Assembly: GCA_030704615.1 (NCBI GenBank)
Contig: CM060731.1
Span: 81,344,001-81,408,000 of the forward strand
Length of the DNA stretch: 64,000 nucleotides
Origin: Takakia lepidozioides
Lineage: Eukaryota > Plantae > Bryophyta
Direction: 5' to 3'
Position numbers and translations under genes: made by a program. The notes beneath the pieces were generated by a model. The model was not told the DNA's origin and made no database searches. It saw only the letters and a program-made list of their open reading frames with translations. Below, one piece after another: positions 8,488 to 40,008 of the stretch (position 1 is the stretch's first letter; each line of letters begins with the position of its first letter).

Positions 8488-9109
8488 GCACCCCCTCCAC
8501 TAGCGCCGAGTTCCTCGAGGAGCGGTAAAATCTTGGACTTGCTTAGAGTTGGAGAAAATCCAAAATCCGGCGAATGGTACTTGTCAAGTATTCGGCTCTT
8601 CGTTCTTGACTCAAATGATTTATAGGTCCCTGTAACCATCGATAGTGTCCAACACCTTGAACTTGGGACCACGCAGTGATTTGAGCATTCTGATTTTCGA
8701 AGCTGCCTTCAAATATGATTTTGTTGCCCTCTGGGTCCGAAGCCTCAACCTCCAATAGAATTATCAGAATTCGAGTAGACTCCACTTGCCGTCGTACGGG
8801 GTCCAGACGAGGAAGTACGCGTCGCATTGGTGGCCCATCGTCTCGAGAGCGTCGGTGTGACGTTGAAGGTCGTGAGAGTCAGAACGGCTGATCTGGTAGT
8901 TGGGTAAGTGACAACTCCAATGTATCTGGTTCATGTGACTCCATGCTGCCAATATAAGATACAAGAGTGTTGGAAGTGTAGCTATATATACTGATGTGTG
9001 GTGCTCCTCCCTCCTTTAGCGTGTATCAGGTACATTGAATGTGGAGTCTTCACCTTGAAGCTAACTTGACTGACATCATCGTTGTGACGTCTTATTGACG
9101 TGTAGCTTG

Positions 9110-12100: not shown

Positions 12101-12598
12101 TCTTTCTTCGTAGCTCTCATGAAGGCTCTAGCTCCAAGAAACAGGGGTTGAATACCTTTGGTACTTTTGCATTTTTGTCTTGCCGAAATTTTTTCATGAT
12201 CGCCAATCGATGTCATGATTATGAAGTACAAACCAAGGAAGTCCAAGGATCACAGGATTCGTTGGAGACTGGATGACATTGAAAATAATCTGTGATGCTT
12301 GATTTTTAAGCTTCACTTCAAGGGGTCGAGTTTCATGGTCAATATTTCCTGATGCTAACAGTCGTCCATCGATGACTTCAACAGGGGCTGAGAATTTCTT
12401 TCTTACGAGCGTTAAATTGTGTTGCTTCACAAAGTCTTTGTCAATAAAACACGCTGAAGCGCCCGAGTCCAAAAGTGCTTCTACGGAGATATCTCGATTT
12501 TGCATCCTGATCTTCACTGGAACTGTGAAACAAAGTACAGGGTCTGGAGGTAGAAAGAGACATTTTTTTGGTGAGGAATTTGGGGTGACCAGCCGCAT
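9110..12598 (-). pseudogene. pol: pol pseudogene (protease, RT, RNase H, integrase, chromodomain) of the Tcn1-like element
   Basis: LLDSGA protease (12194-12598), YLDD RT (11131-11589), SMDFITDLP integrase, and chromodomain EYQVDEVLNSRIKYKHLEYFVHWK. Many stops and frameshifts; the integrase core is internally deleted (IVDRFMK joined to ILEQYLR). Confidence 0.9.
10295..10540. mobile_element. 246-bp MITE inserted in pol
   Basis: Imperfect TIRs of about 28 bp (gggcagaagcatgctacagtggctcact / agtgagccaatgtaacttgcttctatcg) and 4-bp TSD TGAA. Removing it restores the pol frame IIKEIQEALKSDQFA. Confidence 0.8.
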
Positions 12599-12603
12599 GG
12601 TCC

Positions 12604-14351: not shown

Positions 14352-14389
14352 CTTAACTAACTAAAGAACAAATTTTAATCTCGTCAAAC

Positions 14390-15012
14390 TGTCAAGGACG
14401 AGAACATGACTGAACACAAACAAGATATCAGACTAGAGGTACAAGACTAGATAAGAAGTCAAGGTCGGCATGGCCATATGCACGATGAGTAAATATGAAT
14501 CAAGACGATCTTTATAACAATGAACAAGAGTACAAGATATTGGAACACGACTTGAATACTGGAATGCTGGAAACTGGACTGGAGTACCAGATACTGAAAA
14601 CTGGGCTAGAGTACTGGGAACTGGAAACAAGAGTAGCTTGAACTGGTGTTGGCGAGACTGAAGAGTGTCCAGTCTCGCCTCCTATATATACTGGCTACTA
14701 AGAAGTTCCCTAAAAAGCTAGAGGTTTCTTGATGGAGAAGTTTTCAAGATTAAACAAAAGTTTCTTGATGGAGAAGCTTCTTTAAACAAAGAAGATATCT
14801 TGATGGAGAAGTTTCCTCCAAAGGAAGCTTCTTGAGCAGTTTCCCAAGTTACTCTTGGTAATTTGATGAACTCCCGGTAACTTGGTAACTAATGGTAAAT
14901 CATGGTAGATCATGATAAATTACAGTAAGTCATGGTAACTTCCGATAATATGGTAACTTGGTAATTTTTGGTATTTACGCCTGGTAAGTTCTTCTGGGCT
15001 AGGTCCGACACA
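14390..15012 (-). repeat. 5' LTR of the Tcn1-like element
   Basis: Direct repeat of 7929-8487; TATATA box at about 14683-14690 on the minus strand. Confidence 0.92.
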
Positions 15013-17399: not shown

Positions 17400-18271
17400 G
17401 CCTCGTCATGTGGAGTTAGCTTAAACATGATGCACAATAGTTGAATATGCGTTGGGCATTACTGTGTACTTATATACCAAGTCTATCACTGAATGTCTAT
17501 CTAACAAAGATATGTTGTACTCACATTTTGTTAGCATTCCTGAAGGAGAATGACTAGAATCTATGATACGGGGATTCTAATATGTATAGGTTTGTCTAAC
17601 ATCTGTGGAGCTATAGACATTAAATTGGCCAAAAAACCAGGCAAAATTTGTGTCCCAGCAGACTATTGGAACAAACTCCTTCAAGGTATTTGCGATCACA
17701 CTACATGTTCTGTCGGATGCGTATGTTTGGCACCAGGAGGCATTCATGATGCAACCCGGATGCAACTCATTTTTTAGCCTCTTCATTGAATCGCAAATTA
17801 ATGAATAAAGAAATACTACAACATGATGTGGTGACAATTTCGAGAATAAAAATTCTTATATTGTTGGGGTTTTGCCTATCATCTACTCATCAACTTGACA
17901 AAAGTATTCTCAACTAGGTGGTGTGGCTTGACAATGATACGTATGATATGAATTTGTGCAAAGCAAGAGTACGAATTAAAAATTCTTTTGGACAACTCAA
18001 GAACAGATGGAGGGTGTTGAAGTGCTTGAAATTCTCAGTTCTATATGCGGCTCAAATTATTTTGGTATATGTTGCTTTACACAACTTCGCCAAGATGTGT
18101 GGAGATAAAGCATTAGAAGATCTCACAGAAGGTGGAAACGACTACCCTAATTTGAATGCCAATCTTATTCCTAGATTAATCCATTACAGTGAGAGAATAT
18201 ATAGTATGAGAACAAAATTGATACAAAGTATACTTCTGCAACATTGGGCTGAACATAGATACCATGACTAG
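17400..18271 (+). pseudogene. PIF/Harbinger DDE (DDE_Tnp_4-like) transposase remnant
   Basis: GLSNICGAID (first catalytic Asp region), APGGIHDA, and the C-terminal YDMNLCKARVRIKNSFGQLKNRWRVL...IILVYVALHNF signature. Confidence 0.8.
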
Positions 18272-19750: not shown

Positions 19751-20296
19751 CACCTACAAGAGGTATATGCTTTCTCCAAGCATTTACGTGTATCAATCTA
19801 TTGCAAATGTCTTTCTTGTTTGGTTCGACATGCTGAAACACTCTAAGCATCCCATGATATGTCCTGATTCTCTTCCAAATGTCATGTCTAATATCCAAGC
19901 TACTCCCGATCGTGTCCTCCATGTTTGCAACAATGGCCGCCACCAACTATTGTTTCCGACGTTCCGACTTGTCATGTACATTAGTTCCATTTGGCGCCCC
20001 ATTCTCCTCACATAGCCTCATCTCTTTTGCCCTAGCTCTTTGTTGTCTCTTCTTAAAAGCTTGAACACTAAGGCGCTCCCTCTCTAATTCCTCGTTGGTT
20101 TCATTACGTCTTATACGTGCTTTACTTGGCCGATGATTTCTACGTCCTCTTGAGACCATCTTTCTAAATATAACATTCCATATTTTTCTTTTTTAAAATA
20201 TTCTACCTAAACCCTACGCTCCACGATTTGCAAAATCGTCTGATTCTCTCATGTCACGTGGCAAATTGTAAGAGGCCAATGTTGTATGAACAAATC

Positions 20297-23105
20297 TGTC
20301 ATGGTTTTAGTCATGGTTGTCTAGAATTACCTACTTCTAGTTAACTAGGACATTTTAGATATTTATATTTATATTTCGTGTGTTGGGACTTCATTTGGTC
20401 TCACATGCCAAGTGAGATGTCGAGCCTCACTTGGGATATGGGGATAGGTTTTCCCCTTGTGAGGATGGAGGAGGCTCATCTTCTTGTAGTTGAGCCTCCA
20501 TGAGCCTCTCTCTCACCTCCATAGCTCTAGGTATTGAGAGGGAGTGTGGTGAGGGCTTTGTAGGGTGGATTCCCTTAGCAAGGGTACCCTTGGCTTGACT
20601 TAGTCTATGTGATTGAGTGGATTCATGAGTGGAGGGTTTCCATTATGTTCACTTTCGTTCTCACTACAAGATCACCTTATGTTTGTGAGTGCGGAGTGTA
20701 AGGATAGTTTTGCACTTGTGTTGGTGTACACCAAGGAGTGAGAAAGCTAGGGAAAGCTCAGGTATCTCACAAGGCTTGCAAGGTGTTGCAAGGGAGAGTG
20801 TGTTTGCATTGCATCAAGGAGGTGGAGAGCTCAAGGAGAGAGCTCTTGAGTTACAAGACTTTGCAAGTATTGCAGGGAGAAAGTCTTGTGTGTGTGGAAG
20901 CAAAGGTTTGAAAGTTTGAGAAGAATGAGCGTCATCTCTTGTATCTCGAGTGTTGTGACAACCATTTGCCAAGGAAGTGGCTTCTATGGTGAAAAGAATG
21001 CATTCAGGTTTTGTAGAAGCATTATTGTGCACCAAGGGTTTGAGAGCTTGGAAAAGAGCTCTTGCATCACAAGAGAAGAATCTTGTATGTGGAGAAGATA
21101 GACACTAGGGTTTCAAGAGCAAGCTCTAGTTGTTCATGGTGTGAAAGAGAAGCCAAAGGGCGGCACATGCTTGGGTTAGAAACACCATAGAAGGAGTACA
21201 ACAAGGATAGCTTGAGGAGCATTCAGTAGCTCAAGAGAAGCTAAGAAGTGGTTGTTTTATCCATGGTGAAATGAAGCCAAGTGGGGTTTCATTTGGTTGA
21301 CAAACAAGCAAGCTAAGGCGCTAGAAGGGAGTGCTTTTGTTAGTCTATGAGTTCTTGGATTGCTCTTGGTGAAGCAAGTGGTTGACCAAGCAAGTGGCGC
21401 ATGTGTGGAACATGCTTTCCAAGTGCGGCTTCTAACTTCAAGCTTGAGGAGAACTAGAAGGTGAAGGGAACAAGTCATTGTTTTGTGTATGAGGTGATGT
21501 TTATGTGGAGCATGTTTTCAGCCCATTGAGGCTTCTATTTTCAAGCCTTGGAGAGCAAGAAGAAAGGAAAAGGACTGGTTTCCACTTAGGTGAAGGAAAA
21601 GCACTTGTAGAGCACATGTTTGAGTTGGGGTTTCAACCTTAAGCTTGAGGAGAGCACGACTCTTGAGCTAGCAAGTGAAGGGACTTGAATCTTCCTCTTT
21701 GCATGAGATGGAGATGTATTGATGCTTGGAGAAGCAACACATAGAAGCCAAGAATGGAGCATGTGTGTGGATGGCCAAAAGATAGCACATGAATGAGTGC
21801 AAGACTTGGTTGTTTGTCAAATGAGGTAAAAAGCTTGATTCTTGAGCTCCAAAGAGAAGTGAAGCTTGTTGTGTGGCAAATGCATTGCTAGGTGAGATGG
21901 AATCAAGCTTGGTTGTGGCTTGAGGTAAAGAAGATCAAGGTGGTTTGCCTTGGTATCTCATAGAAGTCATGGATGCTTGAGGAGAGCAAGCATGAAGCTC
22001 AAGGAAGCCCAAACCCTAGCTTGGAATGCGCAAACCCTAGCATGGGATGCACAAACCCTAGCATGAGATGCACATGAAACCCTAGGTGCATGGGAACAGT
22101 CACCAAAGTGTGGGAACGGTCACTATAGGGTGGGAACATAGTGACATATAAAGACAATATAGGGCTTTCGGAGGATTTTCAAGGGCTTTTTGGAGGATTG
22201 TTTGGGGGATCTTTGGGGTCATTTGAGGAGCTTTTGTAAGGCACTTTGAAGATCTCTTGAAGAGGTATTTGGATGACTATTTGGAGGCCTATTTGCGGTC
22301 CTTGAAGGCCAAGTTTTGGCAAATTTTTGGAGCCTCTCGAAGGCTATGTGGAGGACCATTTGGGGTCTTTGAAGGCCAAGTTTTGGCAAGTTTTTGGAGC
22401 CTTTGGAAGGCTATGTGGAGGACCATTTGGGGTCTTTGAAGGCCAAGTTTTGGCAAGTTTTTGGAGCCTTTGGAAGGCTATGTGGAGGACCATTTGGGGT
22501 CTTTGAAGGCCAATATTTGGCAAGTTTTTGGAACCTTTGGAAGGCTGTTTGGAGGGCTGTTTGGGGTCCTTGGAGGCCGATATTTGGCGAGCTTGAGGAG
22601 TCTTTGGCGACTTGTTGAAGGACTATTTGGGGTCCTCGAGGGCCGAGATTTGGCAGGCTCTTGGGGCCTTGGTGTACTGTTTGGAGTACCATTGTCCAAG
22701 CTTTAGGAGTCTTAGTGAGATTGTTTGAGAGACATCTTGAGGGATCTTAGAGAGTTATTTGAGAGATCTTTGAAAGGTCTTGTCTATTGCTTAAGCAAGA
22801 GAGTGTGGAGATAGGGTAATGGGATGAGAGCATGCTGTGATAGGAATTGCTTTAGTCTCTCTTCCTTATAGTCTTCCACCCTCTCTGTAGACCAAAACCT
22901 TTCCGTAGGTGGAGGCAAGAGTTAGTCCGGGTTTGGGCTGGGGTGTCTTGCAGAAGTGACATTGTGGAGTGTTTTTGGTGTGGGGGAGTTACTGTTTTGA
23001 TTTCCTTGTGCTTGGATCCCCTCCACACATGCATGCTTGACTGTGTGCCATGTTAGTTTTGTGTGGGCGCTTGTTTTCGTAGGAGGTTGGTCCGGATTTG
23101 ATCAC
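20297..23105 (+). repeat. Putative 5' LTR of the DNMT-carrying element (3' boundary uncertain)
   Basis: Starts TGTCATGG; G/T-skewed non-coding sequence; a degenerate PBS-like ggtcaatcctagagc follows at about 23107. Confidence 0.55.
22270..22690 (+). repeat. 67-bp tandem repeat, about 6 copies, inside the LTR
   Basis: Unit ttttggagcctttggaaggctatgtggaggaccatttggggtctttgaaggccaagttttggcaag; near-identical ORF starts at 22394 and 22461. Confidence 0.9.
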
Positions 23106-23499
23106 CGGTCAATCCTAGAGCGTGCTGTCGATGGTGAGGCTGGGGTGCTGACCAGTCAGACCATCATTGTTCTCTTATAGTGAGGCTGGGTTGATGACCA
23201 GCAGACCATAGGAGTGCTTACAATGAATGTAGGTGCAGGTTTATGTTATGAACCTAGTAGTCCAAGCCATAAACTGCAACAGGTTCTCTACCCGGTTACC
23301 TTGTGGAAAGGGGATTAGAGACAGGTTGACAACCGGTTGGGTTGTGAGTTTTAATCCTGGAGGTGCCACTAGTTGCTGAGGGGAGTGCCGGTACGAGCAC
23401 CAGCAATACTAGTGGGTACACAAGACAAGGTGTGCGGTTTAGGCCACCGTCACCTTCAGTATCTTCTGAGAAAGGTTCAGACTCGGAGTCAGGAGGATT

Positions 23500-25882
23500 C
23501 TCGTCGAAGGTGCAAGTCATTTCCATGCCATTGTTGTGGTACATGATGGAGGAGATGTATAGAGCTACCAATGGGCCACGTAGGTATTCTGGAGCTGTGG
23601 GCATCATCGAGCTTGATGACTTCAACAAGAGTTTGAGAGTTGGTGTGATTTGCAACAAATGCGCAATCCACAACTGTTTACGCCCTTTATGGCGCGGAAG
23701 GGGCTATTCCAGCACCTTGAGGGGCCGCCCGTGGATGATTACCATGAATATAGGCGGGGATACGCGGTGGAGATTGAGGAGTGGGGAGAGTACTGGTCAC
23801 CTAACTATGTCTCCCTCACTAGAGGCACAAGGGCAACGGCGACACCAGTAGCTACACAAACATCTCCAACTGCAAGCACTAGTAGTGGGACAAGTGGTAC
23901 AGGAGCTGGGAAATTCACTCAAGCTCCTGCTGCAGCACCAGCACCCGTGCCTGCCTTTAACCCAGTTGTGGAGTTCTTCGAGGAGTTGAGGAGAAACTAC
24001 CAAGGGATAAGGACAGAGAAGTTGCGGAGCTTGCAAGAGTTCCAACGAAGGTCTACTGAGAGTTTGAGGGAGGCTTACACCCGCATGAGGGGCTTGATAA
24101 ACGTAACCCAATGGGTTACATAAGCTCAGGCAATCCAGTTCTGGTATGGGATCCTGGACAAGGAGCTGAGGAGAAGGGTGCGGGATGCAACTCTCCTACA
24201 AGTGGACCAACCCACCTTAGCAATTATGTTTTTGTTGGCAGAGCGGATAGAACTCAATATGGTGGAGGAGCGAGTGGTCATGGTGGGGTCACAACGAATG
24301 AAAAGGCCCATTGTTATGGCTTGCATCCTGAGCTACGGCCAGGCCAGTTCCAAGGGAACAATGGTGGCCGAGGACGAAGCAATGTAGTCCCGAGAGGTAG
24401 AGAAGGCAGAGGTCGGGGTGGAGGTCGTAACCAAAACCAAAGAGCACAAGGTCAGGATCAAGGTCATGACCAAGGCATGGTGGATAGACTTGCCCAGCTA
24501 GAGCAATGTCTTGCTACCTCCTTGTTGCCTTGAACACGTTGGGATAGTGGTTGTTGTTGGCTAGGAGCCCCACTACTCAAGTTGCGCCAGCTCCAAGGCT
24601 TGAAGTTCAAGCCCCACCTATACAACCTCCTATGCCTAGGGAAGACCAGATTGGTATGGGCTTCATATGTGGAGCCGCACTTGCAGGGCCATTGCATGTA
24701 TTGGACTCTGTTGCTGCTGTCACTCGAGCAGCAACGCGTGCTCCTGAGCTAAGAAGAGTAGATATGGATTTTGATCCACAAAGGGGGGAAGCGAGTCGTT
24801 AGACAAGGCTTCCATAGTCCTTCACATTGGCTGAGTCAGTGCCACGTACGCCATCAATGGCACCCGCTCGCCCAAGTGTGTCGGAGGTAGAGCCACGAAT
24901 ACCATTAGGGAGAGTTGGTGTAGCTCGGGAAATACCAGTGGGTGGTGCAGCCAGTACATTGTTAGGAGCGGCTACGGCGGCTCGCCAAGCTCCATTGTTT
25001 TCTGCAATGACCATTGTAATGTCGGGGATTTGGCCAGCTGTTGTGTTCAGACTAGCAGCTAGACTCTGTGAGAGTGGTGATGCATCAGCACTATCTGCAG
25101 AGATAGCTGATAAGGTGCAGTCTATGGATGCTTTGGATTCGAGGGTGAAGTCAGCCACAGCTGCGCCATGGCAAGCGGCAGCTGCAAGGTTGCAGGAGTT
25201 GCCAGCTATGCTAGCCATTGAGCGCAGCATGGTGACTCCTGGGGTAGTCCTGGTGGACAATCAGGATGGAGTGTTTCAATTGGGTGGTCCAACCGGGAGG
25301 AGGTATAGGCCACTGCGGGTCTTGTTGGACTCTGGAGCACAACCATTGATGTTGGGGAGAACAACAATTGCAGGCTTGGGCCTCACAAAGGCGGATTTGG
25401 AGCCTTGCCCTTTCCAAATTCAAACATCTTTGGGTGGTTCAGAGAAGGCGCGAGGGATTACACGCCATGAGCTCTTCATTCAATTGCAGCCGGATCATCC
25501 TACGGACGGCTCAATCATGAGAGCTAAAGCCATTGTTACGGACGCGATGTCCTATGATGTGCTTGTTGGTGGGGCTGTGTTGTACCCCATGGGCTTTACT
25601 TTGGACTTTTGGGAGGAAAGGGCATCCTACAGGCCGGAATGGCAGTCAGGGGATGGTCGACATGCACTGCTCCTAGTGCGATTTATTGGGAATGTAACGG
25701 TGGATCATAAGAACATGATGCCCACATTGGCTGCATTCTCAGGGGTGGTGGCTTGGGGTGGTGAGCTTTTGGAGGGAAATAGCCATGCAGATAATAGGCC
25801 ACCACCTGATGAGGACAAGCAATTGACATACAAGGCTGAGTTGCTTCCTCATGTTCTGTGCATAGCTCATTGTGGAATATAG
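23500..25882 (+). pseudogene. gag and aspartic protease of the DNMT-carrying element
   Basis: Gag-like YQGIRTEKLRSLQEFQRRSTESLREAYTRMRGLI; protease RVLLDSGAQPLMLG and YDVLVGG in ORF 24827-25882. Confidence 0.8.
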
Positions 25883-26040
25883 TTCGGGATTTGCAGCGAG
25901 TGGCAAACCAGTGTGTGCAGCAAGCATGGGAGGAGGCATTTCCATCGGTAGGTGAGGGGAATTCAGTTACATCACCTAGACCTCCTCAATTAGCTCCATT
26001 AGACACAGTGCCTATTATCTGGCAATAACCTGACTCAGGC

Positions 26041-26990
26041 ATTTGTTTGCTAGACCTGTTTGGAGACATGAGCACTGGGCTTGCAAGAGTGTTGCAAGCA
26101 GAAATCAAAGTACGCAAGTACTTGAATGTGGAGAAGAATGAGATTGCTCGGCGTGTTTCCATGCGCCATGTTGCCTTGCTCACACATCAGTATCCTGAGT
26201 TGTTGCCTCTCTCAGCAATTCAATGGTACCAAAAGACCTTGCCAGCAGAGCGGAGGATTTGGATCGGCATGATCCCATTGACTTGGTGATAGGAGGGTGG
26301 CCTTGCCAAGGACATTCACCCGCAGGTCATGGTAATGGTTTGCAAGATGCACGATCGCATCTGTTTTGGGAGATGCTACGGGTGTTGCGTGACTTGCAGG
26401 TGAGGCAAGTGCAACCTCCAGCTTACATCCTGGAAAATGTTCCTCTCATGGGGGATTCTCGGGCTAGGGTTACGGTAAGTGTACATCAGATCCGGTGATG
26501 GATTGGATCGGTTGTATTGTTGGATGCAGCTGCAGTGGGTTTACGGGCACATAGGCCTAGGTTGTGGTGGACCAATCTTGCACCACCAGAGTTGCTCAAG
26601 AGAGCCTATGATTCCATTCAACAGCCACCCAACCTCACGGTTGAGGGCATTTTGGACCAAGGGAGGCAACCACAGAGAGTGCGACATAATGATCGTCCAC
26701 CTTTGGCGGTGGTCAATCGAGTGGGGCAGCCACGTGCAGCCTTGCCTACGCTCATGAGCTTTCCCTCGTCTCATGCTTTTCAAGAAAATGGTCCTAGGTT
26801 GATTTAGGACAGTGTGCTACAACAATTGGTGGAGCCCAATGCGGATGAGCGAGAGCGGGCAATGGGATTTGCCAAGGGCACTACAGTTGTGCCAGCTCTG
26901 TCAGAGGCAGCACGACGCCAGGTGTTGGGTCAGGCAATGGATCTCAATTGCTTGACATGGGTCATTGGCTTGTGTATGGCTGAGCAACGG
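26041..26990 (+). pseudogene. DNMT3-like C5-cytosine DNA methyltransferase domain embedded in pol
   Basis: Motifs in canonical order: I LLDLFGDMSTG (about 26047), IV DLVIGGWPCQG (PCQ at 26301-26309), VI YILENV (ENV at 26433-26441), VIII AHRPRLWWTNL (about 26547), IX ERERAMGF (about 26847), X RRQVLGQAM (about 26913). One frameshift near 26230 and stops at 26496 and 26805. Confidence 0.93.
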
Positions 26991-27539
26991 AGATTGCAAG
27001 CATTGGTGGCTACTTCCGCACTCCCATTGGATATTGCACCATCTCTGCCAACTGGGACGGTGGAGGCAGTGAGTGAGAGCGAGCTCAGGATCATTTGGAG
27101 TGTGCAAAAAACATCCATGACATATGTGGGATGAGATGCGCGAAGAGAGAGTTATTGGATCTCTCAAAGCCAACAGTTATGAGGAGTGGGGAGAGCCATA
27201 CACTGAGGATCAGTGGGAGGCCAAGGTGCTAAGGCTTTTGAAAGAGGTTGACGATGTTCTTCCCACATGATGTTCTCAGGTGGCTATGGCGGAGCAAGTG
27301 GAGGACTACACCACAGTCAGGGTGGGCGGACAAGGCCAAGAGGTTGCTACCTAGCAACCAAAGGATGGGTCTCAGAACTCCAAGCCTTGTGTACCAAAGG
27401 TTGTAGTCACTGAGGACAGCTGGGAACCAGATGTTGGACCTACAGTCACGGGAGGAGAGAGGGGAGAGAGGCGGAGGATCCAGCAATTCTAAGGGCATAT
27501 AGAAATTGCTTTGACTTCGGTTGTGAAGGATTGGTGAGT

Positions 27540-30340
27540 CTGAAGGGCCAGGAGATTCGTATTGATTTGGGAAGTGAACGCCAATTTTTCGAAAGGCCTA
27601 CAAGTTATAGTGATATGGAGAGGTCTTTGATCCAGTCACGGACTATGGAGTGTTTGAAGCTGGATTGGTGGAGTTGAGTGTCAGGCGGTGGAGGGGAGTA
27701 TGCCTCGGCAATGGTGATACCAGCTAAGGAAGGAGGATCTATGGCCAATTGGACGAAAGGAGGATTGTGTGGGGACTACCGTCCTGTGAACCGTCAGACT
27801 AAGTTTGATAGATATTGCCAGCCAACTCCAGAGGGAGATCTTGCTGCATTGAGCAGCAAAGTATTTAGCACATTGACTTGTGATCCGGTTACCACCAGTT
27901 GCCAATCAAAGAGGCTGACAAGCAAAAGACGACATTCTGGGGGATTGACCAACATGAGAAGGATTGCTTGTACCAATGGCGGTTCCTGCCGTTTGGGTTG
28001 AAGAATGCTCCTGCAAAGGTTCAGAGGGTCATGGATAAGATTCTTGTGGGGCTAGACTTCGCTCGGTGCTACATTGAGGAAATCCATCTTTAGTGCTATG
28101 ATTGAGGAGCACGAGGATATTTTCAGATGGTGTTTGAACGCTTGAGAGCGCATGGGTTGAAAATTGCACCCTGGGAAGTGCAAGTCTTCCACAACCAGAT
28201 TGAGTATCTACGCCACATGATATACCTGGAGGATATTGGGTGTTCAGGAAGACGAAGGTAGAGGCCATTGCACGCACATTCCACGCCCCATCGATGTAGC
28301 AGAGTTCGTGCTTTCATGGGGTGGCAAACTACTATTGACGGTTTGTCAAGCAATTTAGCAGCATTGCAAAGGCTCTTACCAAGTTGACCAAGGTAGGTCA
28401 AGAGGGGCAGTGGGAGGAGGAGCAGGAAGAAGCTTTTGAGGAACTCAAAGCTCAATTGACTTTTGCGCCTATTCTAAGGCGGCCTATTCGGGGGCGGTCT
28501 TTTCCAGCTACATACGGATTGGAATATGCCTAGGGATTGGGGCAGTGCTCACACAGGTGGATGATGAGGGAAGAGAGTTGTAGTGGCATATGCAGCCGCT
28601 CGAACATGATTGCCGAGGCGAAGTATAGTTCATATGAAGGGGAGTGTCTAGCCCAGTATGGGCAATGGCACATTTTAGATGCTACCTCTATGGCAATCTC
28701 TTCACCCTTGTCACGATATCACTAACCATTGAAGTGGTTGATGGAGTCAGACAAGTTACAGGGAAGCTTGCACGGTGGGCACTTATGCTTCAAGAGTACG
28801 ACTTCCAAGTGGTGCATCGAGCCGGAATAGTCAACCAGGATGCGGATGGATTGAGTCGCAATCAATGCACAAGTGAGCTGATGATATAGGAGCTCGTTGC
28901 ATGGTGAGACGGACAAGGAGATAGTGCCAGGATGGCACACATCTGCCTTTTTATGCATTCTAGCAATGAGAGCTCAAGCTGGTCCATCCCATGTGATGGT
29001 CATAGAGATAGATGTGGCATGACACCAGAGATCAGTGAGGAGCTTGGTGGTGCTACGGATGTACATGAAGATGCAACAGTGTTGGCATATTTCGTACTGG
29101 AGAGACAGCAGCCAGTGTGACTACTAAGGAGAGAGATCGGATCTACAAACGAGCCAAGAGGTTCAAGTGGGAGGGGACTCACCTACTCCGAGTATGGAAG
29201 GATAGATGAGGTGAGGATTGTGCCTCATCCAACACAGCGAGCGCGATCGTACACCATGCCCATGAGGAGTTGGGACATTTTGGGGTGCGGCGCACTCATA
29301 GTTTGTTGCAATGACAGTATTGGTGGCGGGGCATGCACACGGATAAGCAACAGTTAGTGGCAAGGTGCATGGTGGATTGTGTGCTAGAGTGCCGGCTTCT
29401 TCCAATGCACCTACTCCACAAGTGCATCCTTACCCATTATGGTTTGGCTATCGTTGGAGTCTTGACTTCGCAGGCCCATTGCGCTGACGATTCGTCATAA
29501 CAAGTTGTGCTAGTGATAGTGGAAACATTTCTCCAAATGGATTGAATCGGTGGCATTGCCTGACAAGGCAAGTAAGGGGCTGCATATGCATTCTTAGATC
29601 GAGTGCTTAGCCAATTTGGTGCTCCAGCCGAGGTACTCACGGGACCAGGGGAGAGAGTTTTGGGGGGAGTTTCAGGCTTTGTGTGAGCAAGCTTTAATAG
29701 ATCACCGCATTACTTCTCGGGATCATCCCGCGGCTGATGGCTTGGCGGAGAGAGTTGTTCAAACAGTCAAGAGAGGTTTGCGCAAGTACGATTTGTAGAA
29801 GGGACACCTAGGAGATTGGGACCTTCAGATGCTTGGCTAGCTATGGACTATAGGTTCAGCCACAAACAAGCTTCCACTTGACTCCTTCTCACCTTACTTT
29901 CTTCTCTTCGGCAAGAGCTAGATTGCCTGCATCTATTCGCAGGGAAGACTGCAGTAGTCCTCAACCTTGAGATTCTTGGATGTGTGGACAAGCATGTGTC
30001 CACGGGCAGAGTTGTTCAAGAGAGTCATGCCTATGGCTTTGAGAAACCTTGCTATTGCCCAACACGAGGAACACATCGAGGTTACGCCACTATACGTGGA
30101 GGGGGATATCGGAAGGGTGTTCGGCGTTTCCATCTTGTGAACTTTGTGTATTTGCAGCAGACAATACATACGACCTTGGATGTCACAGCAGGTCGTGTGA
30201 TGTAAGGGTCTGCGGAAGGTATGCTTGCCTTCAGGAGTGTTGATTCTGGAGGGTCGAGATGGCATGGTATGGAAAAACTATCGTGCGCAATGTGCCACCA
30301 TGTCACCTTCCACATGTGGATGGGAGGATAGATACCCACC
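27540..30340 (+). pseudogene. pol: RT, RNase H and integrase of the DNMT-carrying element
   Basis: CGDYRPVN, KQKTTFWG, LPFGLKNAPA, CYIEE (degenerate YIDD), EAKYSSYEGECLA, KLARWALMLQEYDF, HEELGHFG, DQGREF and DGLAERVVQTVK; heavily frameshifted. Confidence 0.9.
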
Positions 30341-30863
30341 TTGCAAGGAACCTGGCAGGGTTGCGTTGCATGAATATGTAGGGGACGTGACTTCCGTGTG
30401 AGCGTGAGAGCGTACGCTCACGCGACAATGACGTGGCGGGAGCGCAGGCTCATACCAGCTGATGTGGCGTGAGCATGGGGTCACGCTGACGTGGCGTGAG
30501 CGTGAGGCTGACATGTCGTTATCCTGCTGACGTGACAGTCGTCTGAATGACGTGGCATTTGGACAACTTGCCAGATGCCATGTCATCAGAAACATATAAC
30601 ACCTACAGCCAAGGGGCCTACAGTCGTGACATTCATTCATCCAAAACACCAAAAATTAAAATGCAGGAACGATTTGTGAAAGCATTTGCATCCATTCCAT
30701 TATTTCGAACGACTACACACAAGAAAGAAACACACATTTGACGATATAATTGGAGGCTGTACTGGCACCAAATATACGAAGGGACATAAAGTTCAAGTTT
30801 CAATTATTGTGAAATCCAGTAATGGAAATTGCAGATGACCAAAGTGAGAAGATGCTATTGCTC

Positions 30864-32350
30864 CTATCCCTGTTGCATAAGTGTATTCACCTCGTTGAAA
30901 CTCATGGGTGCCTGGTGAATGAAGATGTCGCATCTAGGATCACAAACCATTCTATTCAAGAAGATAAAATACAGATTCTTGTAGGGTATAAATTTTCCTA
31001 TCTTTCCCAAACTTGTTGTAAGCATGCCAACAAAATTAGGACAAGTGCAGTTGGGGAAATTTGAAACTGTGAAGTCGTACCAATCGGTCATGCCATAGCG
31101 GATGTGGAGGTCATCATAGTTTAGATTCGTCCATACCCGGGATTTGTGAAAACTTCCGTAGTGCTTGTAACACGACCTTGAAGCATTCGAGCGGATTTCC
31201 ACCTTGCCGAAGTGTTCGACAGTCGGAAGGGAAACGACGACCAGCTTCCCATTTTGTTTTGTTGGCCATGCATCAGCGTTAGGTGGTGGCACTCGAGAAC
31301 TTGCTGAAGTAGAAGCACCTGCATGTATAGAGGGGGCTCGCTGAAGGGAGAAGCCTGCCTCCTCCAACATGACAATCTCTTGAGTTGGAGATGTGTCCCC
31401 ACCTTCACACGCCAAATGCTTGGTGGAGGAGGCTTCATGACCACCGATGGTCGCACGTCCCACGCACGCACCTACCACAGTCGTCAAGGGCAGAACCAGA
31501 ATTAGTGGTCTTAGCCTTGCTTGCCCGTAAGGCTGGAATTAACCAGTGAAGGTCGGAGCCGGAGTGCGGCTTGCCTCTGGATATGGAGGACTTGCACTTC
31601 TCACGATTGGTGGCTCTGATTGCCGTGCACTTCACTCGAGACCCAGCACTGGTGCATTCTATGTGCCAGACTTTGTCATGGCATATGGACTCAACCACAT
31701 TGGGGAGGACGTTCGACTCTTGCACCCCATTGCATTGACAGTGGGAGATGCATGGGTCTGGCTTTCTAAGAAGTTCTTCCGCACTGGACATTCCGGAAAC
31801 AAATCTCTGATGCAATGGAACACGGGAGAGTGGAGAAAGAGTGGAGACGTGTCCCGTCGGCCTATGCGAGTTTGCATCCAAACCAGGAGGGGTGTTCAAT
31901 TTCCGTTACAAGAGCCGATCCTCCCACCCTCCAGATGCGGAAACTCTGGGACACCAGATGAGCTCCCTCCGCACACATGCTGACAGCCTTGACTATCTTG
32001 TTGGGATCCCAATCTTCTTGTAGCTTGCAACATCAACTCAGACTTGTCGGGACCATTGCCACCAATGCCACCCGGCAAGAACTCCCGGTATCTCGTTTGT
32101 TGCTGTAGAGCTCCATTTTGATCAACTTCCCGTCGTTACCGTAAACCTCTCTTTCGAGGAAGACAGTGCCAATCTGGTACTCGAAACGTGTTGCTAGGAG
32201 ATGTTCCTCCTCAATTGCAAAAACATTGTCATCGGCATCTTCAAGAAATAGAACAGGTTTCTCGACAGAGTAAAAATCCACTTCAGAGGAACCCATGCTG
32301 GTGCACGAAAATTTTTGAGCCACTGGAAGCCTCAAAGTGCATAGTCCCAT
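30864..32350 (-). pseudogene. SWIM zinc-finger protein gene, frameshifted
   Basis: YDFTVSNFPNCTCPNF...IPYKNLYFIF (degenerate SWIM CxC...CxH) plus an upstream Cys-rich block WHIECTSAGSRVKC...KC...DDCGRCVRG; ORFs 32033-32350, 31435-31899 and 30864-31487. Confidence 0.65.
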
Positions 32351-32645
32351 GACTTGTGTGTGGATTATTGTTTACAAACGACAGTGGGGATTACAATTCT
32401 GAGCCTTCCGTTAGAGTTCGACACCGCTACTAACGAGGCCATCCTATCATCGTTTTCTATGTCCCAACCGGATATGAAAGGTGAGCTAAACCCAGATATT
32501 GTGAAAAGCTGATTTACGTTAAGAGTCTTCCAAAAACAGTTGTTAAGCAGTTATGGCCTATGTACCGACCCAAGTGAAAGATGGCGGAGACGAACGTATG
32601 GAATCCAATGTCATCCCAACTTGTGGGCACGTGGAACCCGACAAT

Positions 32646-34655
32646 CACTACTACGTTTGGGGGGGGGGGGGGTTTAGCGAGATGCCCCTAGCGACCTCCA
32701 ACCGCCGCGTTAGCGACGGAAATACTATACGGGGGCCTGGGGCGCGCCGGGGCATTTTGCGAAGTCGGGAAGTCGTAGAGACGTCGCAGCAGCGACGTCC
32801 ACTCCGGAACGTCGCTAATTAGCGTTGTCGGGGAATCGCAAACCCCGAGACCCCCCGGCGCGGCACCGGCGGCGACTTGCGACGTCCGGGGATCGCACAA
32901 TATATATTATATATATATAATAAAATTCTGCGACGTTTTTTCTGCGACGGTCGCTTCTGACGTCCGGGGTCGTAAATGCGACCCCCAGACGTCACAGTAG
33001 GGGGACATTTTGAATTAGGTGGGAAAATTTGAATTTAAATTTAAATTTGAAATTTGAATTTCAAAAAACTAGTTGACCATTGACTCGGCGTTGACCACTG
33101 ACTCCGGTTTGTCCAATGGCAGTTCATGCATTGTTCTACATATATTAGGCAATGCATATTTGAACCTAGGACTCCACATTATAACATTTCTAAGGACACT
33201 GCGTACTATCCAATAATATACAATACATCTATGTATCACAAAAGCAGTCCAAGTATTATATACATATCAAGAGTTAGCTCCTAGTGAATACTACTATCTC
33301 AATTTTATCATTGTGTTGCAGATATGCGTACTCTACAAGAGCTCGCACAGGTGGAACTTGCACGAGACTTGTCCCCAGAGTTCTTCAAGAACAAATATCT
33401 ATCAATGGCCTAAGTTTTGCAAAGCTGCATTGCCAACTTATTGTTGGACCAATGGCTATAGGTCTGAGGGCCAAGCCCATGCTCTACAATCTACTTCCAA
33501 AATCAATTTTCCGCGACGCCCCCAGGACGCTGGGGAATCGCAGCGCCGCAGCCCCAGCGACGCATTGCGACGGCCGGGCGCTCTTGCAATTGGCGGAGAA
33601 TCAAAAAAAAAAAAAAAAAAACGTTTTATTTATGTATTTATTTTTAATCCCGGCATTGCGATTCCCCGCCGTCGCAAGAGACGCCCGGGCCGTCGCAAAA
33701 AGCATCGCTGGCTGCGGCGCTGCGACGTCTCCTGGCAATTCCCCGGCGTCGCACCAATAACTTGCTCTACCGCCAGACAATTAGTTCCCCCAATGATCTT
33801 GTCAGCCAAGGAGAGGAAACGAAACTCTACCAAGAGTCCACTGCTCTTTCGACTTCATTTCTTGCGTTAACAGAGCGTGACTGAAGTTCTTAGAGCGATT
33901 GGACAAAATGAGGGAGCCCGGCACATTATTGATGGAACCCTAGCCCTAACTCTGGGTGACCTACTGCACAGCTGTTCTTAGAAAGGTCAACTGCAATCTG
34001 TTCCTCAGGTTCACCTTGGAAAACCATTCAACCTTGCACTAAAGATAGGCTGAGACAAAAGTGTGTGAAACCCTAACTACAACTATACTGGGCACAGTTG
34101 AACTCAGATATTCATGTGAAGCATACAGAAGCAAAAACCCAACAGAAGACGCTGGACCAGGTAATATATCTTCTAGAACGAAAGCTTAGTACATATTGCT
34201 AAAGGTTACTTAGGGAAACCTCATATATAATGATCTGCGACGACCTTCCAAGCATTCCTTTCTTAGATTAGTCCAGCCGATTTTAGGAGTGATTTAGGGA
34301 ATCAAGTTAGAAACTTCTGTGCAGAATTGAACACCATTGAGTATACAAATGATCTCACTTAGGTCAGGTCAAGTTCAGAAACCCTGCTCAGCTGGGAAGT
34401 GAAAATGATTTGATGACTGTTCTTTGGACTTGCCGCATAACAGTGCGTTGGCGGGGGAATGGGATCAGGCCTCTTTCCGGCGACGGCATGGCATCGCAAG
34501 ATGCCCCAACGTCTTCGAGCGCCAGCGTTACGACGCCCCGACGTCGCATGTCCCGAGCCGAGCACCTGTGCGACGCTGCTGCAATCGCAGGGGGGTCGGC
34601 GAATCCGGCGCGCTTGGGGTCCTGGCGTCGCTAACCCCCCCTAAACGTAGTAGTG
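32646..34655. mobile_element. Non-autonomous CACTA (EnSpm) element, about 2.0 kb
   Basis: Termini CACTACTACGTTT(G)n TTAGCGA and TCGCTAA(C)n TAAACGTAGTAGTG; 3-bp TSD AAT; many GCGACG subterminal repeats. Confidence 0.93.
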
Positions 34656-35099
34656 AATGCAATATTGAGTGCAGGGTTGTAGAAAATTCAGCGGAGAACC
34701 AATTGATAGTGCATGTTGTATCACATATGAAGATTTCGAACCGGGAAAAACCGGCAAAAACTAGTCTAATAACTCATCCATCCAAATCGAATCTATCACC
34801 AAGCAATAATACATAATGGCCATACCTATCTAGTTCAAGACGGCGGCCACTGCGAAAAGGACAAAATGCCTTTGCGAGTGGACACGTATGCCCGTGAAAC
34901 ACAAATAACGAGATCGAGGCCCTGGCTGGTACTATCGAAAAACGTCTCGCAGCCAGTAGTTCGTTGATTTTAAAGCTGGAGAGTAGTAGGAGACTGAGTT
35001 CCCAGCAAGAGCGTGGAAGGCGTAGAAGATAGTCTTCTTTTTTTCACTTCAGCGAGAGACAAGAATAAGGCGAGAGAGAGAATGAGAGGTCCAAGCTCA

Positions 35100-37110
35100 A
35101 TATGACGGTGAAGGAGATAACAGAGGAGAGCGTGGCCCTAGTAACAGAGCACATGGCGGAGGAGGACCAGCCGCGCGGAGAAGAAGCTGTGAACGAGAGG
35201 GAGGAAACAGCAGCAACAGAGGGCGACCCTGACAACATGGTCACAGAGGAGCCCGACACCCTTTGAGGAAGGAAGCGATGCCGAAGGGGAAAAGGCTACG
35301 CAGATGGGGATGGACGGCTTGCGATTGTGGCTCAAGCAGAGCATCTGGGAGTGCCCTCCCAAAGGACCGAAGGTGATTCTCTCCTTTCTCTTGATTGTGG
35401 CAGTGGAGAAGACATGAAAATTGCGTTCGTTGACCCACACAGTTTTTATGCCCTCTTTACTTCTGTTTTCTGTGTCAGCATTCTGTGTTAGCATTGTCGG
35501 ATCTGTATGAGGGCTCATAGAAGTGTAGACGACAGAGAGAAGAAATATGGTGCTCCTCAATTCAGACATGTCCTTTCGGGACCTTTCATTCTGCACATAG
35601 CGGTCAACATTTCTGAACGCAGAGACCGAAGGATGAGAGAAGGGCAATGCGAGCATCCCAAAAATTGCGTGTTCTCACACTATCACACCCTGCACTTCTC
35701 TCACGGTTATCAAGAGAGGTGAATGAAGGGAGAAAGAGAACCCCCTCAAAATTGAGTGCGTTGACGCACGCAATTTATGAGGGTTCTTTCAATGCCCTTC
35801 TCTCATCCTTTGGTCTCTGCTTTCCCTAATCTATGAAGAAAGGTCTGGGAAGTCTGAGCAGTGAGAGATGTTTTCAACTTCAAAAATTGAATGCGTTTAC
35901 GGAGCTCTTTTATGAGTGAAGAAATGGGTGCGTTGACGCACTCAGTTCTAGGCAGGAAAGGAGCGAGAACCCCGAAATATATATATATAATTTTATAATT
36001 TTATAATTTTTATTTTTCCGCTTGTGGCCCTCCAAAATTGAGTGCGTTGACGCACACAGTTTCAGAGGGCCACAAACGCAGCTGTGGTTCGTCCCCCTTG
36101 AGTCATGCTTCTGGTTTTGAAGGGTAGTTCATGTTTGCTGCTTGTCTGGACACGCTTACTTCCATTGGGCAAATCAAAACCTTTCACAATTGAGTGCGTT
36201 GACGCGCTCAATTTCAGAGGGTCTGGTACCTGATGTTTTGTTTGTCCTTCCATTTGAAGATAGCTTCCGGTTTTTTTTTGGGGGGGGGGGGGGGATTTCT
36301 CTTTTGGTGTCTGTATGGACATGCCTGTTGGCAGCCAAGAATGGTGGAATGGTGTTAACAGCTTATACCTGACGAAGGGGGACTGTTCGGGACAAATACT
36401 AATCCTCCACTCCGATAAAGGGTAGCATTCTTCTCTTGTCTGCTTCATTTCATTTTTCTGGTCACACATCCAGAATTGAGTGCGTCAACGCACTCAATTC
36501 TAACGGGGTGAAGTTGCACTGTTCTTTTGCCTTTTTGCATGCATTCGCTTATTTGTGCTTCGTGTTGTCTTCAGTGCAGGACCCGCCTTTTGAAGCCATC
36601 TGTCTCGTCAGGGTGCACCCTTCTTGGACTCTTGCTGCAGTGAAGGAGTTCAGGCTTTCATGGGAGAGGTTGTTTCATGAACAAATTACGTGGATTCGAA
36701 TGTCTGTTTGAGAAAGTCGAATGGAAAACCATGGAGGAGGGGCCAAGGAGAAGAGTCAAACTTTTATTCAAACTATTATTGAGACACATTCCCATCCGGG
36801 GGCGTGCATCGTCGACCTGACTCTTGGAACAGGTTTGACATCTCTCATTTGTCGGTCTTTTTTCCTTTAATACACAATTTGTAACATCTTAGTAACACAA
36901 TTGTGTCTTGCAGGAGCTTCGTACCATGCTTGCAAGGCAGCAGGTCGGCTGTGTTGTATGGAAATGGGAGGGGATGCAGCCATTTTTACTGAGCCTCCAA
37001 GAGTTGCAAGGGCCAATGCCTGCCGCCAAAGAGAAGAGAGAGTTGTAGTGCATGTCGATATCAATGAGGGAGATGACAAGGACCTCGTCAACGATTTCAC
37101 ATGTGAGTAA
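35100..37110 (+). pseudogene. Intron-containing N6-adenine/N4-cytosine (beta-class-like) DNA methyltransferase-like gene
   Basis: Exons 36748-36832 and 36914 onward, joined across an 81-bp GT-AG intron, give EKSQTFIQTIIETHSHPGACIVDLTLGTGASYHACKAAGRLCCME. This matches the motif X-I-II block xKPxxLxxxLIxxxSxPGDxVLDxFxGxGTTxxAxxxxGRxxxGxE. Upstream exons are only partly resolvable. Confidence 0.65.
35418..36500. repeat. Dispersed palindromic mini-repeats with core AATTGAGTGCGT-TG-ACGCACTCAATT
   Basis: Copies at about 35750, 35923, 36036, 36188 and 36473; degenerate copies at about 35418 and 35885; related copies at about 48444 and 48541. Confidence 0.85.
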
Positions 37111-39956
37111 GTTCGTTTGGTGTTCGTTTCCCAGTTATAGCATGTGCCCCCCCTTATGCCTTTCACATTGCTAATGCATACATGTAATTTGGGGTGGTGT
37201 AGGATATTGAAAGCTATCCTTTGCACGACACGTCTCTGTTCAGCTCAGCCTCATATGTTCAAGGGTACCACACAAATGCCTAACATTGGTTATGGCGTTC
37301 AAACAAGAAGACAAAGCATGTGTTGCCTAGTGGTTTCGTCAAATTTTTGGTGCACAATGTGAAAGACCTAGAACTCCTCCTCATGCACAACCGATAGCCA
37401 AATTCATCTTCTAATAGGTTGTTACAACTAAGGTATGCTTACAACTAATGACAAGCTTGAACAATTTCAGTGCTCTCTCAGGAGAGATGAGCAGATTGTA
37501 CCTCACTGGCAAGGCGACTAGGTCGCATTTCAGTCCAGTGCCAGTTTAGGGTGGTGATCTGGTGTGTTGCAGGAAGTATGGTGCTTGAAAGGCTCACAAT
37601 GTGTCGACACTGAAGATGAAAGCAAAAGTGGAGCGTGTTGCACAGTGGAATGTTGCAGTAACCAGTGGGAAAAAATAAAAAAATCAAAGATCTGTCTCAC
37701 ATCTGTTGTGTTGTCTTATTCTAGGTTGCTTTCATCAGTATACCTTTCCCCAAATGGTAGACATCATGGATTAAATCTTATCATGTGCTTCATGAGGGAT
37801 TTTCTCCAATTTGTGATGTTTGTACAAACGGCATTGATTGTTGTGCTTGGTTCAGATAAATGTTAGAATGACATCCTCATTCAACATTCATCCACTCTCA
37901 TACATCCACTTTCATCCATATTCGGAGCGTGCTGACTCTCCTTCATCCTCATTACGCCTCGTCGCCCACATATGGTTCCTTATGTGCCGAATGCGCAAGT
38001 CCGCGGCTATAGACACTCTTCTGCCTATTCGGTCCATGGTAATAGGTTCGTGTCTATGGAAATGACGTGGCATCAACCACGCTGGCAAGGTCTACTGACG
38101 TGGCGTAAAGCCCGTGAGCCAACGTGACAATAACTGCTGATGTGGCGTGAGCCTAGCTGCGCTCACGTGCTCACATGCTCACGCTCATACGCTTAGCGGG
38201 AAGCATCCCCCCTATGTGGGCATGTTGGTGGTACCGCGACCATGTTGGTGTGTGACAAATGCTCAAGGGGGTGGCACATGGGATGATGATTGACACCGCC
38301 ACTTGAGGAGGTTCTTAGTGGGAGAATGGTGGTGTGTCCACGATGGGCCTTGGATAGAGGTAGTGGGGCATGACAGTGGTTGGGTTGACAAGTGATCAAG
38401 GTCTAGCTAACGGGAGTTCAAGGGACACCCAATTGAGCCATGGATTGCGGAAGGCGAGTAGTAATGAGGGGCTACTTTTGCACCCGGCCTCTTGATCTAT
38501 TGTCTTCAGATACTGGGACTTGGGCGATTGATGACCAAGCGATGATCGTATTGGGATGGATACTTGTCAGCTATCCGGTGATTAGAGGGACCTAATCACT
38601 AGGCTAGGGGGCGATTGTGATATAGCTTTCTAGGATTGTGTGCTTAGATTGTGTGGTGGACAGCGATGTATGTTGTGGCACGGTGCTTAGGAGCACGATA
38701 GCTGTCATGGTTTTAGTCAATGCTCCATTTCATGGACTTGGCCAAAAGATATACGCCTTTGAAGCGGCCTCATTCAATGCCAAATTAGCTAGCACAGTGG
38801 GTGTCTCAGACCTGGATTTTGAGATGACCCTTGTTTTCTCCACATACTGGTCATCAGACCTTGTGTAGGACTCTTAAGCTCCCACAACATCTTTCCATGC
38901 TCCATTTCATGGACTTGGTCATAAGATATAGGCCCCATTTGGAAGGCCTGCTTCAATGTCCAATAGTTGGGATAGTGGGTGTACATAAAATTTGATATGA
39001 ACCTCTCTTTTTCTCCACATCTTTGTCTTGGACTTGTGTAGGCCTCCCTAAGGCTCCCATAACATCTTTTCATGCTCCATTTCATGGATTGGGTCAAAAG
39101 ATACGGGCCCCAGATGGAAGGCCTCATTCAGTGCGAAATAGTTGTTATAGTATATGTCTCAGACCTGAAACGTGACAAGACCATTTTATTTTTTTTTTCC
39201 CCATATGTGAGTTCTCAATCCTTGTGTAGGCTTGTCGCGCCCCCTTGCCTTGAGAGCAGGGGGGTCGGACACATGAGGGGCTGCCCCTGTGGTGGGGGCA
39301 GCGGCAGCGATAGGTATGGGGGGCTGAGCACCCTTGAGTGCCCAAGGCACTCAAGGAGGCGGAGGCGCTCACTAGGTGGAGCCCCGCACACCGGGTTGCG
39401 GTGGGGGTGGCTCCACAAGGGGTGGTGGTAGCTTAGCGGGACTTAGTGGGGGTGGCATAGGACTCACCATGGGGGCGGAGACCTCGTGGTGGGAGTCGTG
39501 GGGAGTCTTGGGACTCATCACGGTCCATAGGGGCCGTGGTGAGTGGGCCAAGACTCACCGCGACTCATCACCGGGAGTCGAGGGTTTTCGTGGTGGTTCG
39601 CCATAAAATGGCATGGCAGTTTGTGAAACCCCGCGAACAGCTACAGAAGTATATATGGGAGTAGTAACCCCGAGAACGGTGCAAGCCCGTTGGTGACCAA
39701 AAACTAGTGAGTAAGCGAGCGAGCCGGAAAGCGACCAAAGAGTGGGGAGCTGTTTCGGACTGCCATCTACCAAAGGAATTCCACTAGGCCCAAATAGGTG
39801 GAGGGTTAGTGGGGGAGCGAAGGGGGACCGTTATGTCCCGGTGAGCAGCCGAAGCTCCAAGTTTGGCCCGGCGGCCAGGTTGGGAGTCAGGCGCGCGCAT
39901 CAAAGCGAGTAACTATGACTTGAAGGGGAGTTTATCGAAGTGAGGTGCGCGACACT

Positions 39957-39968
39957 TGGTATCAGAGC
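39957..39968 (+). promoter_or_regulatory. Primer-binding site complementary to initiator tRNA-Met
   Basis: TGGTATCAGAGC starting 2 nt after the LTR-terminal CA. Confidence 0.93.
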
Positions 39969-40008
39969 TTAGAGTTCAGTACGCGATCGTCCTTGGGATT
40001 GGCCTCAT

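Follow-up and report, generated by a model that had tools for sequence, protein, structure and literature searches.

Does a land-plant genome harbor retrotransposons encoding their own cytosine methyltransferase, and, if so, at which level would such an enzyme be made? The question is raised by a 64,000-nt stretch of the genome of Takakia lepidozioides (Bryophyta; GenBank assembly GCA_030704615.1, contig CM060731.1, positions 81,344,001–81,408,000 of the forward strand), hereafter called the window, with positions counted from its first letter. It contains a decayed Ty3/gypsy copy (20297–38719, + strand) carrying a DNMT3-type C5 cytosine methyltransferase (DNMT) between protease (PR) and reverse transcriptase (RT). 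An initial annotation, made from the letters alone, assigned the element to 24827–28300; this range does contain the DNMT domain, but the element is far larger. As described below, the domain belongs to a widespread family, in a large part of which a conserved stop codon separates Gag, PR and DNMT from RT, RNase H (RH) and integrase (INT).

The methyltransferase domain and its family

The six C5-methyltransferase motifs reported in the initial annotation were all located in canonical order on the + strand between the protease motif LLDSGA and RT: motif I at 26050, IV (GWPCQ) at 26295, VI (ENV) at 26433, VIII (AHRPRLWWTNL) at 26547, IX at 26832, and X at 26913. The profile check proposed there was also positive, PF00145 matching positions 26199–26495 with E 1.8e-14 and a score of 54.4 bits (cut-off 22). 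With its stops read as X, the window domain has DNMT3A in all of its 16 best sequence matches from the PDB, and a profile of 13 frame-open relatives matched DNMT3A with 8e-21 vs. 1e-9 to 2e-6 for DRM-type enzymes, 6e-8 for HhaI, and 7e-6 for DNMT2. The AlphaFold model of one relative (L002; L and P denote loci and proteins, respectively) reached a pLDDT of 87, and its listed Foldseek matches were all DNMT3A/B/C (TM 0.64–0.73). The earlier proposal of a DNMT3-type domain that lacks introns and forms an integral part of the element holds for the family, whose sister copies carry the domain too.

The window copy itself is dead. Its DNMT harbors a frameshift near 26250, premature stops at 26496 and 26805, and a second Gly of motif I altered to Asp, and there are many breaks in RT and integrase, so its earlier description as disabled was correct.

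The relatives of this copy are numerous: at 50% clustering, 168 representatives match with E up to 1e-30. Those with names include liverworts (Marchantia polymorpha, M. paleacea, Riccia sorocarpa, and Calypogeia fissa), three Sphagnum species, Closterium, Mesostigma, Klebsormidium nitens, Scenedesmus, and Monoraphidium; Sphagnum proteins share 90% identity with the L001 family. Among the matches listed (best 120 of 280, most of them unnamed), none is named as coming from Physcomitrium, Ceratodon, or a vascular plant, and no relative was found in the viral contigs searched. Four of the 15 listed members of the Marchantia cluster bear names of the V sex chromosome (Mp_Vg). One protein, P0031, is 50% identical to the window domain and comes from a 2.4-kb contig of a metagenome-assembled genome labelled as belonging to a cyanobacterial group; it is likely a mis-binned plant or algal element.

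The domain architecture was tabulated for 62 of the 80 metagenome loci, the 18 weak partial matches (L063–L080) being excluded. In 48 of the 62, PR precedes or RT follows the DNMT (layout A); in nine, the DNMT follows RNase H or precedes the integrase (layout B); in the other five, it stands alone. One candidate relative, L062, was rejected as a bacterial-type dcm. Trees were inferred with FastTree and fast IQ-TREE from reference-projected alignments; the DNMT tree was midpoint-rooted, and host DNMT3 was absent from the set. Layouts A and B are separated in the RT and DNMT trees (support by the Shimodaira–Hasegawa-like approximate likelihood ratio test, SH-aLRT, 98.4/99.7 and 94.3/100, respectively), the named members of layout A being streptophytes and those of layout B chlorophytes; two chromovirus-like elements of the window lie outside both clades. 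The window DNMT groups with liverwort and Sphagnum-type copies (SH-aLRT 90.3). The K. nitens protein P0246 is placed in the PR-DNMT layout group, adjoining the clade of stop-bearing elements (SH-aLRT 85.4 in the midpoint-rooted DNMT tree). In chlorophyte relatives, the DNMT is flanked by RNase H and integrase, so that the capture likely predates Klebsormidium, and a single old capture of a DNMT3 across the lineage seems likely.

The initial annotation had also called for the ratio of nonsynonymous to synonymous substitution rates (dN/dS) across copies. In frame-open loci (L027, L028, L035, and L040), it was 0.09–0.13 for the DNMT in five of five pairs, close to that of the protease of the same loci (0.12–0.15), with RT-RH below both (0.03–0.06). 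Decayed Sphagnum-type pairs gave 0.37–0.64 for the DNMT, and synonymous sites were saturated between the window and six Sphagnum-type loci (pN 0.21–0.24). By this measure, the DNMT of frame-open relatives is under purifying selection. The catalytic motifs PCQ, ENV, and RxR are maintained in both layouts despite an overall identity of 34–48%, and all three patterns were matched in 148 of 290 proteins, many of which are fragments.

The host was assessed by a marker outside the element, the second exon of an EPFL gene (61453–61713, + strand; PF17181). It matches Ceratodon and Physcomitrium EPFL at 77–81%, Sphagnum jensenii at 67%, and the named flowering-plant sequences among 25 candidates at 63% or less. 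Being closest to moss proteins, it indicates that the host is likely a moss, and the embryophyte origin deduced earlier from this gene holds. A one-off host-gene capture, an assembly chimera, or algal contamination, named at the outset as possible refutations, can be practically dismissed. It is true that no one contig covers the element end to end, but a contig of run X2 spans 19908–20349 without a differing letter, crossing the 5′ end of the element at 20297. Annotated Marchantia copies sit on 21–30 Mb contigs, with at least six full-length Gag-PR-DNMT proteins in Marchantia polymorpha; the same order recurs in the 48 layout A loci, and the main split is common to the DNMT and RT trees. At the family level, the records from Marchantia, Calypogeia, and Sphagnum refute this explanation. 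The summed contig depth in run X1, which is not a copy number, was 61,000–91,000 over the DNMT bins vs. 100–185 in the left flank, a contrast showing that the domain is part of a highly repeated family.

The stop codon ahead of the reverse transcriptase

The proposed arrangement of PR-DNMT-RT within pol was borne out as to the order of domains; pol is not continuous, however, since a conserved stop ends the first open reading frame (ORF1, Gag-PR-DNMT) ahead of RT. In the window, the stop with its context (TAG CAA CCA, 27352–27360, + strand), a predicted readthrough site, lies between Gag-PR-DNMT and RT-RH-INT followed by a PHD finger; these nine bases show no variant at or above 5% in sister contigs from three DNA runs. 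Of 44 loci compared at the homologous site, 43 have a stop there (30 TAG and 13 TAA, with one TAC), and the next codon is CAR, again in 43 of 44. With near-duplicates removed, the Sphagnum-type copies retain the stop in 27 of 28 cases and the following CAA in 28 of 28. Among 22 frame-intact spacers, this site is a stop in all, vs. three at most for any other codon, and in spacers as different as 399, 459, 519, and 528 nt, DNMT and RT share one frame. The arrangement is best seen in L028, where 1369 open codons (Gag-PR-DNMT), one TAG, and 1046 open codons (RT-RH-INT-PHD) follow each other in the same frame. The protein ends are similarly constant, lying 129 aa past motif IX in six Marchantia proteins and 131 aa past it in two of the Calypogeia cluster and in L001. 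Stop-bearing elements form a clade with a support of 98.8 in the DNMT tree and only 69 in the RT tree; the former suggests that the stop was gained once.

The motif UAG CAR YYA is the readthrough signal of tobacco mosaic virus (TMV), operating at about 10% in vivo, and rice gypsy elements already include readthrough candidates, according to the portions available of PMC2754532. It is fully matched in the window and in five of the 44 loci (L027, L028, L035, L040, and L059), with five more having TAA instead; the third codon is CCC or CCT in 33 Sphagnum-type loci. The same 9-nt context as in TMV type I readthrough would here part Gag-PR-DNMT from RT, with the difference that the Sphagnum-type family has CCC as the third codon. 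The TMV-type context together with the conserved stop makes it likely that the enzyme is produced at the Gag level; RT-RNase H-integrase-PHD would probably be made by readthrough.

If so, the majority of ribosomes would terminate after Gag-PR-DNMT and a minority would continue, adding RT-RH-INT-PHD, with DNMT about tenfold more abundant than RT, given TMV-like rates. In Ty3/gypsy biology, the element protease frees the domains within the particle, and the DNMT would probably be released by it and co-packaged. The simplest target would be the new cDNA, likely at CG sites by analogy with SymbioDIRS-Dnmt3, and catalytic activity on the cDNA or at the insertion site appears reasonably plausible. 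The likely benefit would be that the new copy arrives pre-methylated, either shielded or with its own expression dampened. Taken as a whole, the chain from a Gag-PR-DNMT3 ORF1 through readthrough and near-Gag packaging of the enzyme to cDNA methylation is slightly favored.

Several observations weigh against this reading. The 44 stop-site loci represent about four families, with repeated assemblies. Four relatives (P0199, P0318, P0319, and P0324) continue from DNMT into RT without a stop, which therefore cannot be a requirement throughout the lineage. A conserved downstream stem was not found (z from −2.3 to −3.3 in three of eight sequences, +1.0 in the window), and the stem shows no two-sided compensatory change and is unsupported beyond one family. 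In the Sphagnum-type family, the context is CAA CCC (not YYA) and then ATG, permitting reinitiation, and the upstream sequence TTTTTGCATAG is U-rich and looks like a splice acceptor; L027 and L035 have an early Met past the stop.

The stop might be bypassed by splicing, with its AG as the 3′ acceptor, or by reinitiation, RT coming from a separate message or start and the DNMT still being an ORF1 product. Beside the U-rich tract ahead of the TAG in the Sphagnum-type family and the ATG found there two codons downstream, this explanation can draw on Marchantia gene models such as P0008 (computed models only), which fuse DNMT to RT without the spacer. On the other hand, L027, L028, and L040 have no pyrimidine tract, L028 and L040 offer no Met for 116 codons past the stop, and splicing requires neither CAR after the stop nor a common frame on both sides; the bypass is thus considered unlikely. 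The TAA copies (7 of 28 of the Sphagnum type) are inside the range of normal G-to-A decay, so the frequency of TAA vs. TAG does not separate splicing from readthrough.

The proposed activity also meets with objections. In PMC5890265 (cited throughout from its available parts), the K. nitens domain yielded no methylation in yeast, a result called inconclusive by its authors. Such inactivity would fit a domain retained for nucleic-acid binding or particle structure, whose catalysis is no longer needed, but the maintenance of PCQ, ENV, and RxR noted above makes this role improbable. The CpG observed/expected ratio (O/E) is 0.48 in the window element vs. 0.89 and 0.93 in two window elements lacking a DNMT. 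In nine of nine Sphagnum-type loci, however, the flanks have an O/E of 0.25–0.54 vs. 0.54–0.59 in the element; with flanks equally or more depleted, CpG depletion is not element-specific and cannot be taken as a trace of self-methylation. In 30 Sphagnum-type copies, decay amounted to 17–23% at CHG and 15–18% at CG, and a pattern in which CHG is hit as hard as CG points to old copies having been silenced by the host in the ordinary way. The same figures bear on the idea that the enzyme acts in trans after release, its target being host chromatin or integrated copies and not particle cDNA, so that the element would curb its own copy number. Gag-level output would be far above the need of one cDNA, and slowed transposition was raised as a possibility by de Mendoza et al. 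(PMC5890265); nevertheless, host CMT and MET1 suffice to account for the observed decay, and the trans-acting brake is held to be doubtful.

Single in-frame stops between long open reading frames (ORFs) occur in some layout B loci as well, namely in L057 (2207, TGA after the protease ORF) and L056 (5924, TAG CAG CCC), whereas L049 has overlapping frames and L053 one ORF of 3329 codons, suggesting several expression strategies in one lineage.

Split repeats and anatomy of the window copy

The element was initially called a long terminal repeat (LTR) retrotransposon. The Ty3/gypsy domain set is indeed present, i.e., the order gag-PR-RT-RH-INT with a DDE integrase, but two full flanking LTRs are not, the repeats being split. 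The complete arrangement, A (about 340 bp)-coding-B (about 115 bp)-two bases-A-B, was seen in L033 and L036, together with 4-bp target duplications; the 3′ B-A-B was seen in L007 and L009, and the window retains an A1...B1-GC-A2 remnant. TG...CA ends and 4-bp target duplications characterize the relatives L033, L036, and L008, the 3′ end of the window copy being lost. Neither a tyrosine recombinase, the hallmark of DIRS/Ngaro elements, nor the chromodomain of chromoviruses was found in L028, which has an rve integrase and a PHD finger in their respective places. No tRNA primer-binding site was obvious by eye after the 5′ repeat in four loci, no tRNA set having been searched.

The B-A junction GACA-GC-TGTC, or a one-base variant of it, recurs in L028, L035, L044, and L056. 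It is palindromic in both layouts, e.g., over 16 bp without mismatch in L033 (10344–10359) and also in L035 (8235), L044 (5080), L056 (7580), and the window (38694–38709), and it resembles a two-LTR circle junction with two spacer bases only. Certain copies end after the first B (A-coding-B), namely L008 (5747–14386, with its own 4-bp duplication), L011, L015, L023, and L038; they could stem either from B-by-B recombination or from a shorter integration product.

In the window, with all features on the + strand unless stated otherwise, the 5′ terminal repeat A1 (20297–20650, right edge approximate) begins with TGTCATG, the first seven bases being those of Sphagnum-type termini, and the read depth goes up in the bin concerned. 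A self-comparison of the window gave no LTR pair at the first threshold; only a looser one revealed the 18/18 identity between 38702–38719 and 20296–20313 of repeat A. A tandem array of 67-bp units, detected by repeat analysis, occupies the 5′ leader (22201–22693). It is followed by a broken gag (23543–24515; PF03732 at E 0.003, below the cut-off; 61% to residues 28–242 of Marchantia P0002), the aspartic protease (25238–25660, with LLDSGA at 25322; PF13650 at E 0.007, below the cut-off, and tblastn), and the DNMT (26038–26987; Pfam, PDB, and motif evidence). Past the stop come RT with many frameshifts (27540–28222; PF00078 at E 1e-7, tblastn) and RNase H (28456–28859; PF17917 at E 7e-8, tblastn), the Pfam scan giving RVT_1 at 27884 and then RT_RNaseH at 28638. 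The DDE integrase, comprising a zinc finger and the core (29246–29912), was delineated by tblastn, the Pfam match being weak in the window copy and strong in L028. A linker and the very start of the C-terminal PHD finger (30286–30380) match residues 964–990 of L028 ORF2 by tblastn.

The PHD finger is split by a later nested insertion foreign to the family (30381–38210, strand not assigned): the match to L028 ORF2 breaks off with residue 990 at 30369 and is taken up again with residue 992 at 38212. The remainder of the finger (38212–38343) is 55% identical to that of L028 (E 1e-8; PF00628 on L028 ORF2). Next are a purine-rich stretch resembling a polypurine tract ahead of repeat B (38585–38614), closely matched at the same position in L033, L036, L009, and L007, then repeat B1 (38615–38700), which ends with CACGATA and corresponds in position and end motif to the Sphagnum-type B repeat, and the GC junction with the first 17 bases of A2 (38701–38719); the remainder of A2 and B2 are absent from the window.

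The 7.8-kb nested insertion is bounded on either side by GGGGA in inverted orientation and has subterminal repeats of the TGACGTGGC type; a minus-strand ORF within it (30864–31538) displays a SWIM-like CxC motif by eye, and no Pfam match was obtained for 46 of its 75 ORFs in one scan and four ORFs in another. It probably represents a DNA transposon in decay, which may contain additional nested pieces. A satellite-like array of ~175-bp units (38717–39118 and 46175–47923) starts exactly where A2 of the DNMT element breaks off. Inside this array sits a young chromovirus-type LTR element (39259–46180; LTRs 97% identical) with RT, RNase H, integrase, SH3, and chromodomain. Upstream of the DNMT element, there are an older Tf2-like LTR element (7929–15012, minus strand; LTRs 85% identical), in which a solo LTR of the 39259-type family is nested at about 12764–13458, and a Harbinger-type DDE_Tnp_4 fragment (17918–18271; E 4e-5), narrowly missing the cut-off.

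Known systems and implications

The link to Klebsormidium suggested by the initial annotation holds. The closest published counterpart is KnitGypsy-Dnmt3 of K. nitens (PMC5890265), which shares with the present family Gypsy domains, an intronless non-rearranged DNMT3-type domain, DIRS-like split repeats (legend of its Fig. 4c), and purifying selection. In P0246 (KFL_013780020), PR is likewise followed by the DNMT, 40% identical over 235 aa; this record, flagged partial, stops 12 aa past the DNMT domain. KnitGypsy-Dnmt3 was described as having the DNMT in the ‘Pol polyprotein ORF’ and as acquired in the K. nitens lineage (PMC5890265), whereas the present family occurs in land plants, encodes the DNMT in ORF1 before a conserved stop, and has relatives in Mesostigma, Closterium, and chlorophytes. 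SymbioDIRS-Dnmt3, whose domains carry out de novo CG methylation in yeast (PMC5890265), also combines a DNMT3-type domain with A-coding-B-A-B repeats, but it uses a tyrosine recombinase in place of a DDE integrase with TG...CA ends and 4-bp duplications. EpiLTRs (bioRxiv 10.64898/2026.05.21.726589, available part) likewise belong to the LTR class and combine a cytosine DNMT with a chromatin-reader domain; they differ in having a DNMT that is sister to DNMT4, accompanied by DAM and a chromodomain, as opposed to DNMT3-type and PHD finger here. A PHD finger in the polyprotein is also described for the Chlamydomonas elements Gypsy-7a_cRei and REM1 (PMC9940879), likened by description only, the available portion naming no DNMT or split repeats.

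Regarding land plants, the available text of the same preprint speaks of ‘streptophytes (Gypsy-DNMT3)’ without naming them, and the text supplements of PMC5890265 cover Physcomitrella, with 9 DNMT genes, and do not name Marchantia or Sphagnum. In the literature accessible, including few subscription journals, no paper was found with this family in land plants or with its stop, although the supplementary DNMT tree of the EpiLTR preprint may hold bryophyte sequences. The land-plant range is thus an extension of a published system, to which the conserved stop and the two layouts across green plants are added.

A broader scenario can be put forward tentatively, as one that may well prove wrong. 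A DNMT3 would have been captured by one Gypsy lineage before the chlorophyte/streptophyte split, relocated from its position after RNase H to one after the protease, and subsequently placed ahead of a leaky stop in the branch including the land-plant elements, turning a Pol-level enzyme into a Gag-level one. A de novo DNMT would be present in particles in large excess, providing mosses and liverworts with a transposon-encoded source of 5-methylcytosine, and the split repeats with the palindromic GACA-GC-TGTC junction would point to an undescribed route to integrase-ready ends. If this is true, the hypothetical host genes currently annotated in Marchantia include frame-open ORF1 copies.

The advantage to a retrotransposon of carrying the very enzyme by which it is normally silenced has been an open question since 2018, partly because, to our knowledge, the earlier-known hosts lack good genetics. 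In Marchantia polymorpha, CRISPR is in place, and the met1 mutant derepresses transposons; the copies found there bring this question within reach of experiment. A concrete prediction on enzyme dosage follows from the conserved stop. DNMT gene counts in bryophyte genomes may be inflated by retrotransposon copies, and the algal relatives suggest that the capture is much older than reported.

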